Origin: Patescibacteria group bacterium
GTDB taxonomy: Bacteria > Patescibacteriota > Microgenomatia > PFEM01 > JAHIFH01
NCBI GenBank assembly: GCA_018900995.1
Contig: JAHIFH010000012.1
Span: 1 to 47,373 of the forward strand
Direction of reading: 5' to 3'
Length of the DNA: 47,373 bases
In this document: one piece after another, positions 18,663-22,343 of the stretch
Position numbering within the stretch: position 1 is the first letter of the stretch
Layout: each line of letters starts with the position of its first letter
Notes under the pieces: model-generated
Seen by the model: the letters and a program-made list of their open reading frames with translations, nothing else
Databases searched by the model: none
What the model was told of the DNA's origin: nothing
Translations under genes and position numbers: made by a program

Positions 18663-19310
18663 TCAAATCACTAAACTTAAACTAAAAGTCAAAAACAAAA
18701 GGAACAAATAAGAAATGATAAAGCCCTTATCAGTAAATAATCTAGAAGTAAAATCTTTAATCGTTTCTCTAATCACATTCTTTTTCGAGCCGGGATAATA
18801 ATAACTAACAAAGCGTAGTTCACCAACAGCACTTTTATCATTAAGAATCATCTCTCCTTCTGAATAGACATCTTTGGGGGAATGAAAAATTTCGACTGCG
18901 TCGAATACGGTTGAAGAAGGCGACTCAAGGTAAAAATAATAACTTTTTCCCGCTGAGTCCGAAATTGGCTCAAACTGAAATCTCACTGAGCCTGGATCGC
19001 CGACATTAAGACCACTGATTTGGATTTCTCTTAAATCACGGTCAGTACCCATCTCCCTTAGGTGAAAAACAATTGGTTGTTCATTTTTTAACATCGCATT
19101 TCTTAAATCAAGAACAATAATATTCAAATTATCTTTATTAGCAACAAAAGTCTGTCCTACTTTCCTATCCTCATAAATTTGATAAAGGTAATCACCACTT
19201 GTCTGGGCAATATCAACTCTTTTCCTTATCCCAAAAACAGAAAATAATAAAACAACCAACAATGCTGTTACCAAAATAAGAATAACTTTTAGCCAGACTT
19301 TCTTATTCAT
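18663..19310 (-). CDS. Hypothetical bitopic membrane protein with an extracytoplasmic beta-rich domain
   Basis: N-terminal and C-terminal hydrophobic helices flank about 160 aa. 8-nt overlap with the upstream gene. Confidence 0.5.
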   Translation of the reverse strand: MNKKVWLKVILILVTALLVVLLFSVFGIRKRVDIAQTSGDYLYQIYEDRKVGQTFVANKDNLNIIVLDLRNAMLKNEQPIVFHLREMGTDRDLREIQISGLNVGDPGSVRFQFEPISDSAGKSYYFYLESPSSTVFDAVEIFHSPKDVYSEGEMILNDKSAVGELRFVSYYYPGSKKNVIRETIKDFTSRLFTDKGFIISYLFLLFLTFSLSLVI

Positions 19311-20550
19311 TTTTCTTCAGGCTTTGCCAGCCTATCCAAAAAGCCGCTCCTGCTAAAACGCTATGTCCAAGGCTCTGAATTAGGAAAGGATCAATGATTT
19401 TTCTGTCTCTTAGTAATTCAAAAAAACTCGGTACCCCAAGAAAGCTTGGATTAACTGGAACCAATAAACCAAAAAGCTGAGCACGATCATTAAACAGAAA
19501 GACAACCCCTAAAAAGGCAAAATAGAAAACAAGCTGAGGAAAAAGAAGTGAAGGTTTTTTGACTAAAATAATCGTTAGAGGAGGCAAAATCCAGATTATC
19601 CATTGCGGATGGAAGTGGCTCAGGGAAAAAACCAACAGAAAGATTGCCAGAAAGAAAGGAATAATTCTTTCCCTTTCTGATGAAAAATGATGAAAAGCCA
19701 AAAAGAAAAGAAAGGTTAAAGCAGTCATAAAAATGATTAAATTTTCTCCAAAACCCAAAGGGATGCTAGCTAGAAATAGCCGTTGGCTCAATCCCGAAAA
19801 AAGAACTGATTGGCGAAAAGCCATTGAATTTAAGAAAGGCAAGATACTAATCACATAAGGAATGATGCCTAGAATAAAAATCATCAATCTCTCTCTTGTT
19901 TTTTTGCTTCCCAGGATAACCAAAAATGGCAAAAGCAATAAAGGATAGGTTTTGAAAGCAGCTGCCACCCCTAGGGTTAATCCTCCAAGTTTTTTTCTAT
20001 CTCTCAAAACTAAAAGGACAGCTAGTAAGACAAGAAGTGAGGGTAAAATATCAAAATGGCTAAGTCCATAAATGGCATAAAGAACAACTGGATTAAAGAG
20101 CCAAAATAAAAAGACTCTCTGTTTTTGCTTTTTCTCCTTAAAGAATTGGGTCAAAACAAAAGCCGTCACGATATCTAAGATGAGATAGGGTATTTTGAGG
20201 ACAAAAAGATAATGAAAAATTCGGGGATTAAAAATTCGCTCTGGTCCCCAATCAAAAATCCAGTTAACAAAACCACTGCCTAAAAAGGGACGAAGTAAAA
20301 TCTGGATTGATCCGAATAAGAAATAAACTAAAGGAGGGTAATTAAAAGTATCAGTATAAGGAAGGCTTTGGATGTTACCAGCCAGATATTGATAAATATT
20401 AAACACTCTTTGAGAGAGAAAGTAGAAATGAAAATGGTGGCTTTTTATATCGGGGTGAAAAAGAAACGGCATTAATAAAAATCGAATAAAAAGAGCCATC
20501 AAAAGCACTTGACCATAAAAAGATTTTAAGAATTTTTTCATCCTTTCCAT
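19303..20550 (-). CDS. Polytopic GT-C-like glycosyltransferase (DUF2029/GT87-like)
   Basis: FHPDIKSH, YPPLVYFLFG and AAAFKTYPLLLLPFL. Paralogue of 28201..29469. Confidence 0.55.
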   Translation of the reverse strand: MERMKKFLKSFYGQVLLMALFIRFLLMPFLFHPDIKSHHFHFYFLSQRVFNIYQYLAGNIQSLPYTDTFNYPPLVYFLFGSIQILLRPFLGSGFVNWIFDWGPERIFNPRIFHYLFVLKIPYLILDIVTAFVLTQFFKEKKQKQRVFLFWLFNPVVLYAIYGLSHFDILPSLLVLLAVLLVLRDRKKLGGLTLGVAAAFKTYPLLLLPFLVILGSKKTRERLMIFILGIIPYVISILPFLNSMAFRQSVLFSGLSQRLFLASIPLGFGENLIIFMTALTFLFFLAFHHFSSERERIIPFFLAIFLLVFSLSHFHPQWIIWILPPLTIILVKKPSLLFPQLVFYFAFLGVVFLFNDRAQLFGLLVPVNPSFLGVPSFFELLRDRKIIDPFLIQSLGHSVLAGAAFWIGWQSLKKNE

Positions 20551-20574
20551 TGAATTATTACCCTTCTTATATTG

Positions 20575-20664
20575 TATAATACTCGAAGAGAATTTTCGAG
20601 GTGTAAAACACCGCTGAATAATACTCGAAGAGGATTATCGAGGCACGAAGTGCCGCTGTATAAT
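20575..20664. repeat. 42-bp tandem repeat x2 plus a third TATAAT, in the divergent intergenic hub
   Basis: Unit 1 (20575-20616): TATAATACTCGAAGAGAATTTTCGAGGTGTAAAACACCGCTG. Unit 2 (20617-20658): AATAATACTCGAAGAGGATTATCGAGGCACGAAGTGCCGCTG. TATAAT follows at 20659-20664. Confidence 0.85.
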
Positions 20665-20669
20665 AAACC

Positions 20670-22343
20670 ATGATGAAAGGAAAATTGGGCCGGTTAATAA
20701 TCCTAGGAATTTTGGTTGCTCTATGTCTTGGCAATTTTATTCTCGGTATTAAGCTTAATTATCCACCTTATGAAAACGAGCTGGTCACTCTAATTAACAC
20801 CAGATTAACATTTAACAATTTGGGATTGGATCAACAATCCCGAGCAACAATTCTCAATAATATTTTAGGTGAAGAGCAATATTTTTCTGAAAAAATTTTC
20901 CCCTTAAGAAGCTGGCTTCAAGCTTTGGGCGGGACTAAAGGCATTTTTAACCTGAGGTTGGTCAACTTTATTATTTTTATTATGACCCTTATTCTCTTTT
21001 ATTTTTTCTTGAAGCAAGTTGGATGGACATCACCAATCACCCTTTTTCCCCTTATTTCAATTACAATCTCTCCTCTATCACTTTCTCTCTGGTTATTTAG
21101 ACCAAAAATTTGTTTAACCATTTTTCTTCTTATTTCTTGGCTACTTATCTGGTCTAGAAAAGAAAGAAAATTCATTCATGACATTTTTTGGGTAATAAAT
21201 ACCCTTCTTCTCTTTTACTCATCGTTTCAAGGATTAATAATTGGCCTTTTACTCTTGACTCCTATAACGCTGTTTAGATTCTACCGAGCCAAAAAATACT
21301 CTATTTTTTTGACTTTAGCCATCTTAGTGCTCTTCTTAATAATTCCTATTATTAAAAATCCTCTTTTTAAAAAAAGCTTAACTCAGTCAGCACCTTTTAA
21401 TGCCGTCAATCCAACTCAAGTCGGGCAGCAAATAACCGAGAGATTTACTCAAGAAGATGGTCTCCAGGTAAGGGTCATTTTTCCTCTTTTGTTCAGAAGA
21501 ATGGGATACAATAAAATTTTCTTCGCCTATCGAAATTTCACCAAGGAAGTTCTAAATTTTTTTGATCTAGAGACACTCTTTTTCCAAGAAGTTCATCCAA
21601 TGCAACAAAAATCTGAGGTCACATTTTATTGGCCCGAAATTTTTGTCTTTCTTGTTGGCATTTTTTGGTTTATTAAAAGCGGTTTTGGAAAAAAACAAAA
21701 AAATTTACTATTTCTAATTTTTTTGTCATTCATTTTTCATCTTTTTACTCAAAACGACACATTTGCCGGAAGATACGCCTTAACTCTCTTTACTCTGGCT
21801 ATTGTTATTGGAATAGGTTTTAAACAAATGCCACGAGGCTTATCTTTGATTATTCTTCCTCTTATTATCTGGGCAATTTATATCAACACTTATGATATCC
21901 TTAAAAGACCCCTTTTTTGGTATGACAATCGCCCCTATGTCTATGCTCAAGGAATAAAAGCAATTAAGATGATAGAAACAGAATCAGTCTCATACAAAAA
22001 TATTTATTTAACTTCTCTTGTTGGCAATCCAAAAATTTACTATTTTTACTATTTCTCACCCCAACCTGAACTCTTTCTCAAAGATCCCCTCTTCATTGAA
22101 GATAAGGGTAAAATTGTCTATTTTAACAGCTTTGACCTCGTCAGTAATCTTCCTCAAAAAAATTCACTTTATTTTGGCTTTCTGGGAGAGTTCATCGGTC
22201 CCAATTCTTTAAACGAATTTTCTGAGCAGGACATCAATAAAATAGAACCAATCGGGCTCAAGATAGAAAAGGTTTGGAAACTCGATAATACAATTGCTTT
22301 TCGCTACAGTGATTATTTTGTTCTTGCCTCATTGAAGGAATAA
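20670..22343 (+). CDS. Divergent GT39-like polytopic membrane paralogue lacking the DE/GYNAYS loop motif
   Basis: Same length class (557 aa) and a related C-terminal domain (KIYYFYYFSPQPELF). Loop 1 reads PPYENELVTLINT instead of xDExxxGYNAYS. Confidence 0.55.
   Translation: MMKGKLGRLIILGILVALCLGNFILGIKLNYPPYENELVTLINTRLTFNNLGLDQQSRATILNNILGEEQYFSEKIFPLRSWLQALGGTKGIFNLRLVNFIIFIMTLILFYFFLKQVGWTSPITLFPLISITISPLSLSLWLFRPKICLTIFLLISWLLIWSRKERKFIHDIFWVINTLLLFYSSFQGLIIGLLLLTPITLFRFYRAKKYSIFLTLAILVLFLIIPIIKNPLFKKSLTQSAPFNAVNPTQVGQQITERFTQEDGLQVRVIFPLLFRRMGYNKIFFAYRNFTKEVLNFFDLETLFFQEVHPMQQKSEVTFYWPEIFVFLVGIFWFIKSGFGKKQKNLLFLIFLSFIFHLFTQNDTFAGRYALTLFTLAIVIGIGFKQMPRGLSLIILPLIIWAIYINTYDILKRPLFWYDNRPYVYAQGIKAIKMIETESVSYKNIYLTSLVGNPKIYYFYYFSPQPELFLKDPLFIEDKGKIVYFNSFDLVSNLPQKNSLYFGFLGEFIGPNSLNEFSEQDINKIEPIGLKIEKVWKLDNTIAFRYSDYFVLASLKE

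Follow-up and report, generated by a model that had tools for sequence, protein, structure and literature searches.

The tandem repeat and its setting

A tandem duplication of a 42-nt unit was analysed in contig JAHIFH010000012.1 of the Patescibacteria group bacterium assembly GCA_018900995.1. The window, meaning the whole stretch of DNA that was analysed, is 47,373 nt in length. The repeat region lies between a leftward GT87-like gene (start 20550) and a rightward membrane-protein gene (start 20670 or 20673), and was delimited by Tandem Repeats Finder (TRF) at 20576-20665 with a period of 42 nt, 2.1 copies and 79% matches. The duplication consists of two copies of a promoter cassette with two hairpins. 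The family of this cassette, found in Microgenomates, has not been described before, is supported by covariation and occurs singly or in 42-nt tandem arrays. The features of the region are as follows, with the basis for each in brackets.

20575-20616, + strand: unit 1 of the cassette, 42 nt (TRF; match to covariance model (CM) R1 at 20588-20622, 47.1 bits, E 2.8e-8).
20575-20580, + strand: upstream TATAAT, -10-like, whose ATAAT forms the 5' arm of hairpin A in this unit (sequence).
20576-20596, + strand: hairpin A of unit 1, ATAAT-A-CTC-GAA-GAG-A-ATTTT (pair counts on alignment A5; DNA and RNA folds).
20600-20612, + strand: hairpin B of unit 1, GGTGT-AAA-ACACC (minimum free energy (MFE) fold; covariation).
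20617-20658, + strand: unit 2 of the cassette, 42 nt, starting with AATAAT (match to CM R1 at 20630-20664, 56.4 bits, E 2.4e-10).
20618-20638, + strand: hairpin A of unit 2, ATAAT-A-CTC-GAA-GAG-G-ATTAT (MFE in DNA and RNA folds; 98% paired in A5).
20642-20654, + strand: hairpin B of unit 2, GGCAC-GAA-GTGCC, whose loop is of the c(GAA)g mini-hairpin type (folds, covariation, loop census).
20659-20664, + strand: terminal TATAAT, putative active -10 box of the rightward operon (spacing to the ATG).
20670-22343, + strand: first rightward gene, 557 amino acids (aa), a membrane protein with no Pfam match (open reading frame (ORF) list; Pfam).
20571-20576, - strand: TACAAT, candidate -10 box of the leftward operon, in a back-to-back arrangement with unit 1 (consensus match, TCGAAA-17-TACAAT).
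19303-20550, - strand: first leftward gene, GT87-like, 415 aa (Pfam PF09594).

Unit 1 (20575-20616, TATAATACTCGAAGAGAATTTTCGAGGTGTAAAACACCGCTG) and unit 2 (20617-20658, AATAATACTCGAAGAGGATTATCGAGGCACGAAGTGCCGCTG), which are followed by the TATAAT at 20659-20664, are identical at 32 of 42 positions. Three compensatory pairs in the stem of hairpin B (T:A>C:G, G:C>A:T and T:A>C:G) account for six of the ten differences, so that GGTGT-AAA-ACACC at 20600-20612 stands against GGCAC-GAA-GTGCC at 20642-20654. When 10 random substitutions over 42 positions were simulated, three double hits preserving Watson-Crick pairing in this stem had a P of approximately 1.5e-5. The hairpins of both units were part of the MFE fold with DNA parameters and also with RNA parameters. 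An earlier note, made from the sequence of the window, had described a duplication with a preserved second hairpin, and the TRF result, the identity between the units and the three compensatory pairs all confirm this description.

A coding repeat was considered and rejected. The + frame beginning TAT AAT ACT is open for approximately 33 codons, and a unit of 42 nt keeps the reading frame, but the compensatory changes alter the peptide (CKT versus HEV), units of 43-48 nt occur, and the module also precedes RNA genes. No intrinsic terminator was found in 20300-20900, and neither hairpin is followed by a T-run. The GT87-like orthologues of two relatives (G003 and G004, 63-64% identity) are not divergently arranged, and therefore these genomes offer no orthologous intergenic region.

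Distribution and architecture of the cassette family

The source genome, designated G000, is a 708-kb metagenome-assembled genome (MAG) of 40% GC in 72 contigs. A BLAST of the repeat region against it returned two further partial matches, and a shared-core pattern (CGAGG-N9-13-CCGNNGTAWAAT) gave 3 matches in G000 and 15 in the sister-genus genome G002, with none for a reversed-pattern control. A CM built on the 3' half of the unit was run on 23 genomes of the order, where it found 22 copies in G002, six in G021, five in G000, three in G020, and one each in G016 and G009; the module is present at three loci in G000 beyond the window array. Of 151 genomes sampled from the class, just one more had matches. 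Metagenome loci were gathered with an exact-flank pattern, and the CM identified 80 copies, 55 of them distinct, on 65 such loci. The distribution is patchy, and the cassette is therefore not a general promoter type of the lineage. Rfam 15 gave nothing relevant on the window region at E up to 10 and no match on five related loci at E up to 0.1, and we found no published description of the cassette family.

Read from 5' to 3', a unit consists of TATAAT, a stretch of approximately 7-30 nt ending in a (G/A)ATTAT box, CGA, hairpin B, G(CT/AA)G and the next TATAAT. All modules are flanked by TATAAT on both sides, and every copy is oriented toward the downstream gene. An upstream TAnAAT is present in 82 of 88 family units, 25 of these 82 hexamers being preceded by TGn. 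The hexamer-to-hexamer spacing has its mode at 42 nt (26/88 units) and falls within 38-48 nt in 65/88, and there are also 'long' variants in which another repeat is inserted between the unit halves. The 3' 35-mer of unit 2 is identical to copies in G002:C21 and in the metagenome loci L100, L140 and L143. Both window units belong to a dispersed family with distinct stem 'alleles', and the array need not have diverged in place. The search for further copies that the earlier note had called for has therefore yielded many of them, and the covariation holds over the 55 distinct sequences.

Hairpin B

Hairpin B is 96.7% paired over the 55 distinct sequences. Both-side changes occur in three of its five pairs (34 cells) and bring in 11 additional pair types; the covariation score was reached by none of 500 shuffles, and controls in which the pairing was slid were 5-56% paired. 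The covariation is thereby strengthened, and with it the proposal that a nucleic-acid structure is selected here in a promoter-like context.

The hairpin has the form G-G-N-N-N / loop / N-N-N-C-C and spans 13-20 nt, with 13-nt hairpins dominating. Stem types include CAC/GTG, TGC/GCA, TGT/ACA, GC/GC, TAC/GTA, AAC/GTT and TTC/GAA. Length variants comprise the 5-bp stem with a triloop, a bulged 15-nt form, a 7-bp form (GGTCGCC-GCA/ACA-GGCGACC) and an 8-bp form (GTCCCGAC-GGAC-GTCGGGAC), and the flanks, ATTATCGA on one side and G(CT/AA)G-TATAAT on the other, are unchanged across all of these lengths. Since the length of the stem varies between fixed flanks, the functional state must be folded and not a linear duplex. 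Among 79 distinct hairpin B centres, 68 read C[GA]NAG and 58 read CGNAG.

These variants also bear on whether the palindromes could be duplex sites for a dimeric DNA-binding regulator, placed as operators in the promoter spacer of a small growth-related regulon. The palindromes do overlap the promoter spacer, their flanks are conserved, and the downstream genes are enriched for translation functions (tsaD, valS, miaA, obg, rpmH, rpmE, tRNA and 5S). The half-sites, however, differ within one genome (CAC, TGC, TTC, GC, TAC), but always symmetrically, and a dimer reading the duplex would not tolerate arms that vary from 4 to 8 bp around loops of 3 to 7 nt. We consider an operator of this kind very improbable.

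Hairpin A

The first hairpin named in the earlier note, CTCGAA...TTCGAG, is present in the window (20582-87/20595-600, with 5 bp in unit 2), but it is not the conserved pairing of the family. In 19 full-length units this pairing was 88% paired, with one pair broken in 9/19 and zero compensation, while the alternative ATAAT-n-CTC-GAA-GAG-n-ATTAT was 98% paired and included one compensated pair (CTC/GAG > CAC/GTG). What the family keeps is a palindrome that joins the upstream TATAAT with the ATTAT box around a small CTC-GAA-GAG stem-loop. The loop of this hairpin A is also of the c(GAA)g type. In unit 1 of the window the box has changed from ATTAT to ATTTT, hairpin A is weakened, and the CTCGAA/TTCGAG pairing (20582-20600) is favoured instead.

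In units with other 5' halves the arms of hairpin A extend and covary, as in ATAATTTG/CAAATTAT, ATAATCTTAC/GTAAGATTAT and ATAATCT/AGATTAT. In one pairing of this kind, TATAAC/GTTATA, the hexamer itself changes along with the box. Perfect outer stems of at least 7 bp were found in 27 of 72 units, compared with approximately 10 expected from shuffled partners.

At one group of loci the 5' arm lies within a gene. The last codons of a pilC/GspF-like gene (TAT AAT TTG ACA TCT CAA TTT TAA) double as the 5' arm of a long hairpin A, and a near-copy of this 20-24 nt gene end follows the cassette, before a type IV pilin gene. Such loci are L023 (G020:C48), L043 (G016:C30), L045 (G009:C2), L072 (G002:C67) and L115 (metagenome), and the hairpin A arm and both copies co-vary between lineages.

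The terminal TATAAT and leaderless starts

The terminal TATAAT at 20659-20664 is located 5 nt before ATG 20670 and 8 nt before ATG 20673, and no Shine-Dalgarno sequence was found before either of them. In the non-tandem copies of the family the first long-ORF start most often follows the last TATAAT after 7-8 nt, and in 29/64 after 5-11 nt; gaps of 18-20 nt contain a Shine-Dalgarno sequence. One copy is located 12 nt before a tRNA gene and another before a 5S rRNA gene, and the element therefore acts on transcription and not on translation. The bases preceding the terminal hexamer are GCTG or GAAG; the TG is displaced by one position, so that there is no TGn extended -10. Judged by these distances, the terminal TATAAT is best understood as a genuine -10 box, and the genes that it serves as mostly leaderless. 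The earlier suggestion that the last TATAAT is spaced for a leaderless rightward mRNA agrees both with the family mode of 7-8 nt and with a peak at 8 nt in G000 as a whole.

This genome-wide pattern was seen when TATAAT-N8 was sought directly before the first ATG of ORFs of at least 100 aa, which gave 9 cases in G000 and 0 for a control hexamer. Throughout G000, TATAAT stands 6-12 nt (peak 8) before the first ATG of long ORFs without a Shine-Dalgarno sequence. Some of these leaderless-type starts have a canonical TTGACA, and promoters of the canonical form TTGACA-16/17-TATAAT are present too, for example in contigs C31 and C60. From such spacing, leaderless mRNAs appear to be common in this Patescibacterium. 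Two in-frame ATGs are present at 20670-20675, the second of which (20673) is at the modal leaderless distance; because of this distance of 8 nt from TATAAT, ATG 20673 may be the true start of the 557-aa gene, one codon later than annotated.

The genes that follow modules include tsaD, valS, obg, def, rpmH, rpmE, miaA, secG, rluA-like and uvrD-like genes, pilins, GT2s and small membrane proteins. A tie of the motif to glycosylation operons, in front of which the earlier note had suggested looking for it, was not borne out by this range of core and RNA genes. In most relatives tsaD has a plain TATAAT-N6-9-ATG without the module.

Dedicated transcription factors were also considered. A sigma-54 promoter was rejected, as PF04552 was absent in five genomes with positive controls, and GG-N10-GC fits only the bulged variant of hairpin B. 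An alternative sigma factor as trans partner was likewise rejected, as the counts of Sigma70_r2 show no clean correlation with the distribution of the module. Nor does a second sigma factor of 316-406 aa, which is present in G000, G002 and G021, and also in G012 and G018. A 218-aa sigma factor resembling the extracytoplasmic function (ECF) type adjoins one G002 module, its G000 counterpart having no adjacent module. For a T7/N4-like polymerase, PF00940 gave no match in five genomes, but none in the control genomes either.

DNA or RNA structure

The earlier note had left the choice between a DNA and an RNA structure open. A DNA structure is favoured by the type of loop and by the fact that a -10 box outside the transcript takes part in pairing. 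The motif d(cGNAg) forms a mini-hairpin that is far more stable in DNA than in RNA (PMC13037366), and in the early promoters of phage N4 the closing pair together with the 5' G and 3' A of the loop lets a 5-7-bp hairpin extrude at physiological superhelicity (PMC4496689). The E. coli rrnB promoter, given an N4 hairpin in the spacer from -35 to -10, showed gyrase-dependent switching (Dai et al. 1997, reviewed in PMC4496689). Hairpin A holds the upstream -10 hexamer, which lies outside its own transcript, yet it covaries, and this was counted for a DNA structure. The cassette loops are c(GNA)g, whereas a second intergenic repeat family in G000 has c(UUCG)g loops, an RNA hallmark. G.U cells in hairpin B number four and are not commoner than A.C, mismatched cells being few in any case.

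A structured RNA leader would account for several of the same observations. The upstream TATAAT, often TGnTATAAT, would then be the real promoter, and the module of approximately 40 nt a 5' leader that carries hairpin B, perhaps within an AUUAU/AUAAU helix, and could act at the level of nascent or mature RNA through stability, through processing to a leaderless 5' end, through antitermination or through an RNA-binding protein, with tandem units multiplying the sites. The TGn before the upstream hexamer is well above the approximately 6% expected, some upstream hexamers have canonical -35 boxes, and RNA motifs typically show such a stem, whose length varies while its flanks stay fixed. A number of modules are internal to operons in which transcription would be expected to read through (for example tsaD-valS and pilC-pilin). 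In addition, pairing of the box arm with the downstream hexamer and 2-5 further nt was found in 13 cases, compared with approximately 5 for shuffled partners.

However, hairpin A takes in the -10 hexamer and the first approximately 7 nt, all of which would be missing from a transcript started at that promoter, and it covaries nevertheless. The triloops are neither UNCG nor GNRA tetraloops, unlike the loops of the neighbouring repeat family, and G.U is not favoured over A.C, as far as the few mismatched cells can tell. The distance from module to TATAAT is rigid at 4 nt, and the spacing to ATG, to the tRNA gene and to Shine-Dalgarno-led starts fits a -10 box. Most of the target genes have no Shine-Dalgarno sequence, so that a leadered mRNA would be poorly translated, and Rfam has no match. 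An RNA leader is possible but doubtful on this evidence.

Duplication and spread of units

Unit number differs between related loci. The tsaD gene is preceded by three units in G002 and by one in the metagenome relatives L144/L150, and one array has three units in G002:C20 and four in L127. In at least five lineages, part of the pilC 3' end is repeated after the module at the pilC-pilin junction, starting at TATAAT (TATAATTTGACATCTCAnTTTTA), and an extra flank beginning at this point is what the tandem duplication of a TATAAT-led unit would leave. These arrangements show that promoters in this lineage can be copied as cassettes.

A largely selfish or neutral repeat could spread by tandem duplication together with template switching or single-stranded DNA-based copying at TATAAT microhomology; its palindromes would be kept by quasi-palindrome correction and not by function, and the box would be tolerated as long as the distance from -10 to start is preserved. 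The uneven copy number, from 0 to 22 per genome, fits such a repeat, as do the differing unit numbers among close relatives, the identical 35-mers in different genera and the extra flank at the pilC loci. A TATAAT at both module ends would be expected from insertion or duplication just after a -10 box.

Against a selfish repeat, the same genes (tsaD, valS, the MPAQ... membrane protein, pilC-pilin) have kept the module in several of the order's lineages and families, and it always faces the gene. Stems that are otherwise unrelated have the loop type and the closing pair in common, which points to selection on hairpin stability. A repetitive extragenic palindromic (REP) sequence driven by a Y1 transposase of the REP-associated tyrosine transposase (RAYT) type, or an IS200-type miniature inverted-repeat transposable element (MITE), was rejected on the ground that the copy-rich genomes have no transposase: the Y1 domain PF01797 is absent from G000, G002 and G021, and is present in G020 and in G001, which has no module copies. 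Neither terminal inverted repeats nor a target duplication of fixed length were seen at the modules, and no clean pair of empty and filled orthologous insertion sites was obtained. We regard a largely selfish or neutral repeat as unlikely.

Proposed mechanism

In the reading that we prefer, the repeat is a dispersed modular promoter cassette, tandemly amplifiable and found in a subset of Microgenomates; transcription from its last TATAAT yields a leaderless mRNA, and its hairpins work at the DNA level as structural elements that respond to supercoiling. To this reading we assign a probability of roughly 0.45. In the window, TATAAT 20659-20664 would be the working -10 box, and the mRNA of the three-gene GT39-like run would have no leader or almost none, probably starting at ATG 20673. 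Hairpins A and B might form supercoil-extruded c(GNA)g mini-hairpins that change the geometry of the promoter or the availability of its -10 boxes, so that DNA superhelicity or a factor binding the structure would influence these promoters. Upstream -10 boxes would be sequestered in hairpin A, and hairpin B would fill the spacer where a -35 element would otherwise lie. Arrays may arise by in-place tandem duplication of the 42-nt unit; because 42 nt corresponds to four helical turns, all -10 boxes would then lie on one face of the helix.

Several points weigh against this preferred reading. Matches were absent from 17 of the 23 genomes of the order, and the role of the terminal TATAAT as working -10 box was assigned from its spacing. 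The -35 match for terminal hexamers never exceeded 3/6 in 54 cases, and a -35 rebuilt by extruding one or both hairpins was tried and rejected, as the hexamers brought to 17 bp (ACTCGA etc.) are unlike TTGACA. The upstream hexamer is itself promoter-like, with its TGn in 25/82 and in some cases TTGACA or TTGTCA at 17-18 bp, and hairpin B is therefore probably also transcribed as a leader. In 13 of 76 units, where approximately 5 are expected, at least 7 bp can form between the ATTAT arm and the downstream hexamer, which is compatible with an RNA helix enclosing hairpin B. Lastly, the geometry differs from that of the N4 promoters, in which the hairpin is centred at -11 with the stable GNA fold on the template strand, the start being 8 nt from stem position -8. 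The cassette hairpin is centred near -23 with the GNA on the non-template strand, its loop centre lying approximately 16 nt upstream of T(-7) of TATAAT and hairpin B ending 4 nt upstream of the -10 box.

A bolder form of the cassette reading, against which we would lean while keeping it in view, is that Patescibacteria have a natural cellular class of sigma-70-type promoters. In such promoters an extrudable c(GNA)g hairpin, situated in the upstream half, would replace the -35 element, a second hairpin could sequester a neighbouring -10 box, superhelicity would set the choice and strength of the promoter, and gain or loss of 42-bp units would tune expression over evolution. If this were true, promoters set by superhelicity would provide an energy-state sensor for organisms with very few regulators.

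To our knowledge, almost nothing is known about transcription control in the ultra-small, regulator-poor Patescibacteria. A 42-bp cassette before core genes, with two hairpins kept by compensatory change across families, is a concrete, sequence-defined and easily synthesised test object for transcription in these organisms.

Other repeats and genome observations

The second intergenic repeat family has the form ATAAGAACC-[5-7 bp stem]-TTCG-[stem]-GAACCTTGTTTCTCGCAAGCTCGAAAT and often stands directly before an ATG. In G000 it occurs at C28:27911-27933, C41:19505-19527, C46:2160-2184, C55:13801-13827, C56:4955-4977, C56:9937-9959(-) and C58:3252-3274, and it is also found in G002:C20 and G002:C3 (L057, L063). 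Its stems covary (TTGCC/GGCAA, TGAGC/GCTCA, TTCCGCC/GGCGGAA, TGCGC/GCGCA) around c(UUCG)g loops, and it has no Rfam match. This TTCG-loop family is the insert found in the 'long' cassette variants. An AGCTTG-N7-CAAGCT box of the long variants occurs reversed at G000 C41:8556-8574 (AGCTTGCGAGAAACAAGCT), directly upstream of a TATAAT-N9-ATG leaderless start.

Two copies of tsaD are present in G000 (C65:437-1483 and C55:13848-14150), and the C55 copy and its upstream region resemble G001. The second copy is in keeping with the contamination of the MAG, estimated at 5.9%, or with strain heterogeneity. The tsaD and sigma-factor proteins of G002 (CAZPFP01) are 76-83% identical to those of G000, and G002 groups in the same family, so that its label of 'uncultured Gammaproteobacteria bacterium' is probably wrong.

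Comparison with known systems

In the leaderless promoters of Actinobacteria and Deinococcus, the -10 box lies approximately 6-8 nt before the start codon; such promoters are reportedly treated by Cortes et al. (2013), as cited in PMC12641261. The cassette resembles these in its consensus -10 located 6-9 nt upstream of the ATG without a Shine-Dalgarno sequence, a feature found genome-wide in G000. Ordinary leaderless promoters, in contrast, have neither a conserved hairpin module nor tandem repetition.

The BOX elements of Streptococcus pneumoniae and the enterobacterial REP sequences and bacterial interspersed mosaic elements (BIME) are short, modular, hairpin-rich intergenic repeats that can affect the expression of neighbouring genes. 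Like the cassette, they have a tandemly reiterated module (boxB is approximately 45 nt), variable copy number and a patchy phyletic distribution. They differ in that most of them lie between genes or at 3' ends and may face either way, and in that they have no consensus -10 at a fixed distance from a start. REPs accompany RAYT (Y1) transposases, which the copy-rich genomes here do not have, and BOX and REP elements share no sequence similarity with the cassette.

Correia elements and other MITEs have outward promoters, but they possess terminal inverted repeats and target-site duplications. The class I/II repeats of halovirus HF2 likewise are intergenic cassettes, repeated so as to give a promoter to the downstream gene (PMC8707807), although they are archaeal-virus promoters without covarying hairpins.

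The early promoters of phage N4, which are read by the virion RNA polymerase, share with the cassette a small promoter DNA hairpin with a 5-7 bp stem, a 3-nt GNA loop and C:G closing, in which some stem positions are conserved and others are free to covary. The engineered rrnB promoter with the N4 P1 hairpin is similar in that its hairpin occupies the -35/-10 spacer of a sigma-70 promoter and makes this promoter depend on gyrase (PMC4496689). The N4 promoters, however, are read by a single-subunit phage polymerase and have no TATAAT, while the cassette belongs to a cellular chromosome and stands before housekeeping genes. If its hairpins act in DNA, the cassette would be the first cellular counterpart of the N4 hairpin-promoter principle and a natural version of the 1997 E. 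coli experiment; if they act in RNA, it would be a new leader motif. Either way, it speaks for leaderless initiation as a common mode in this lineage.

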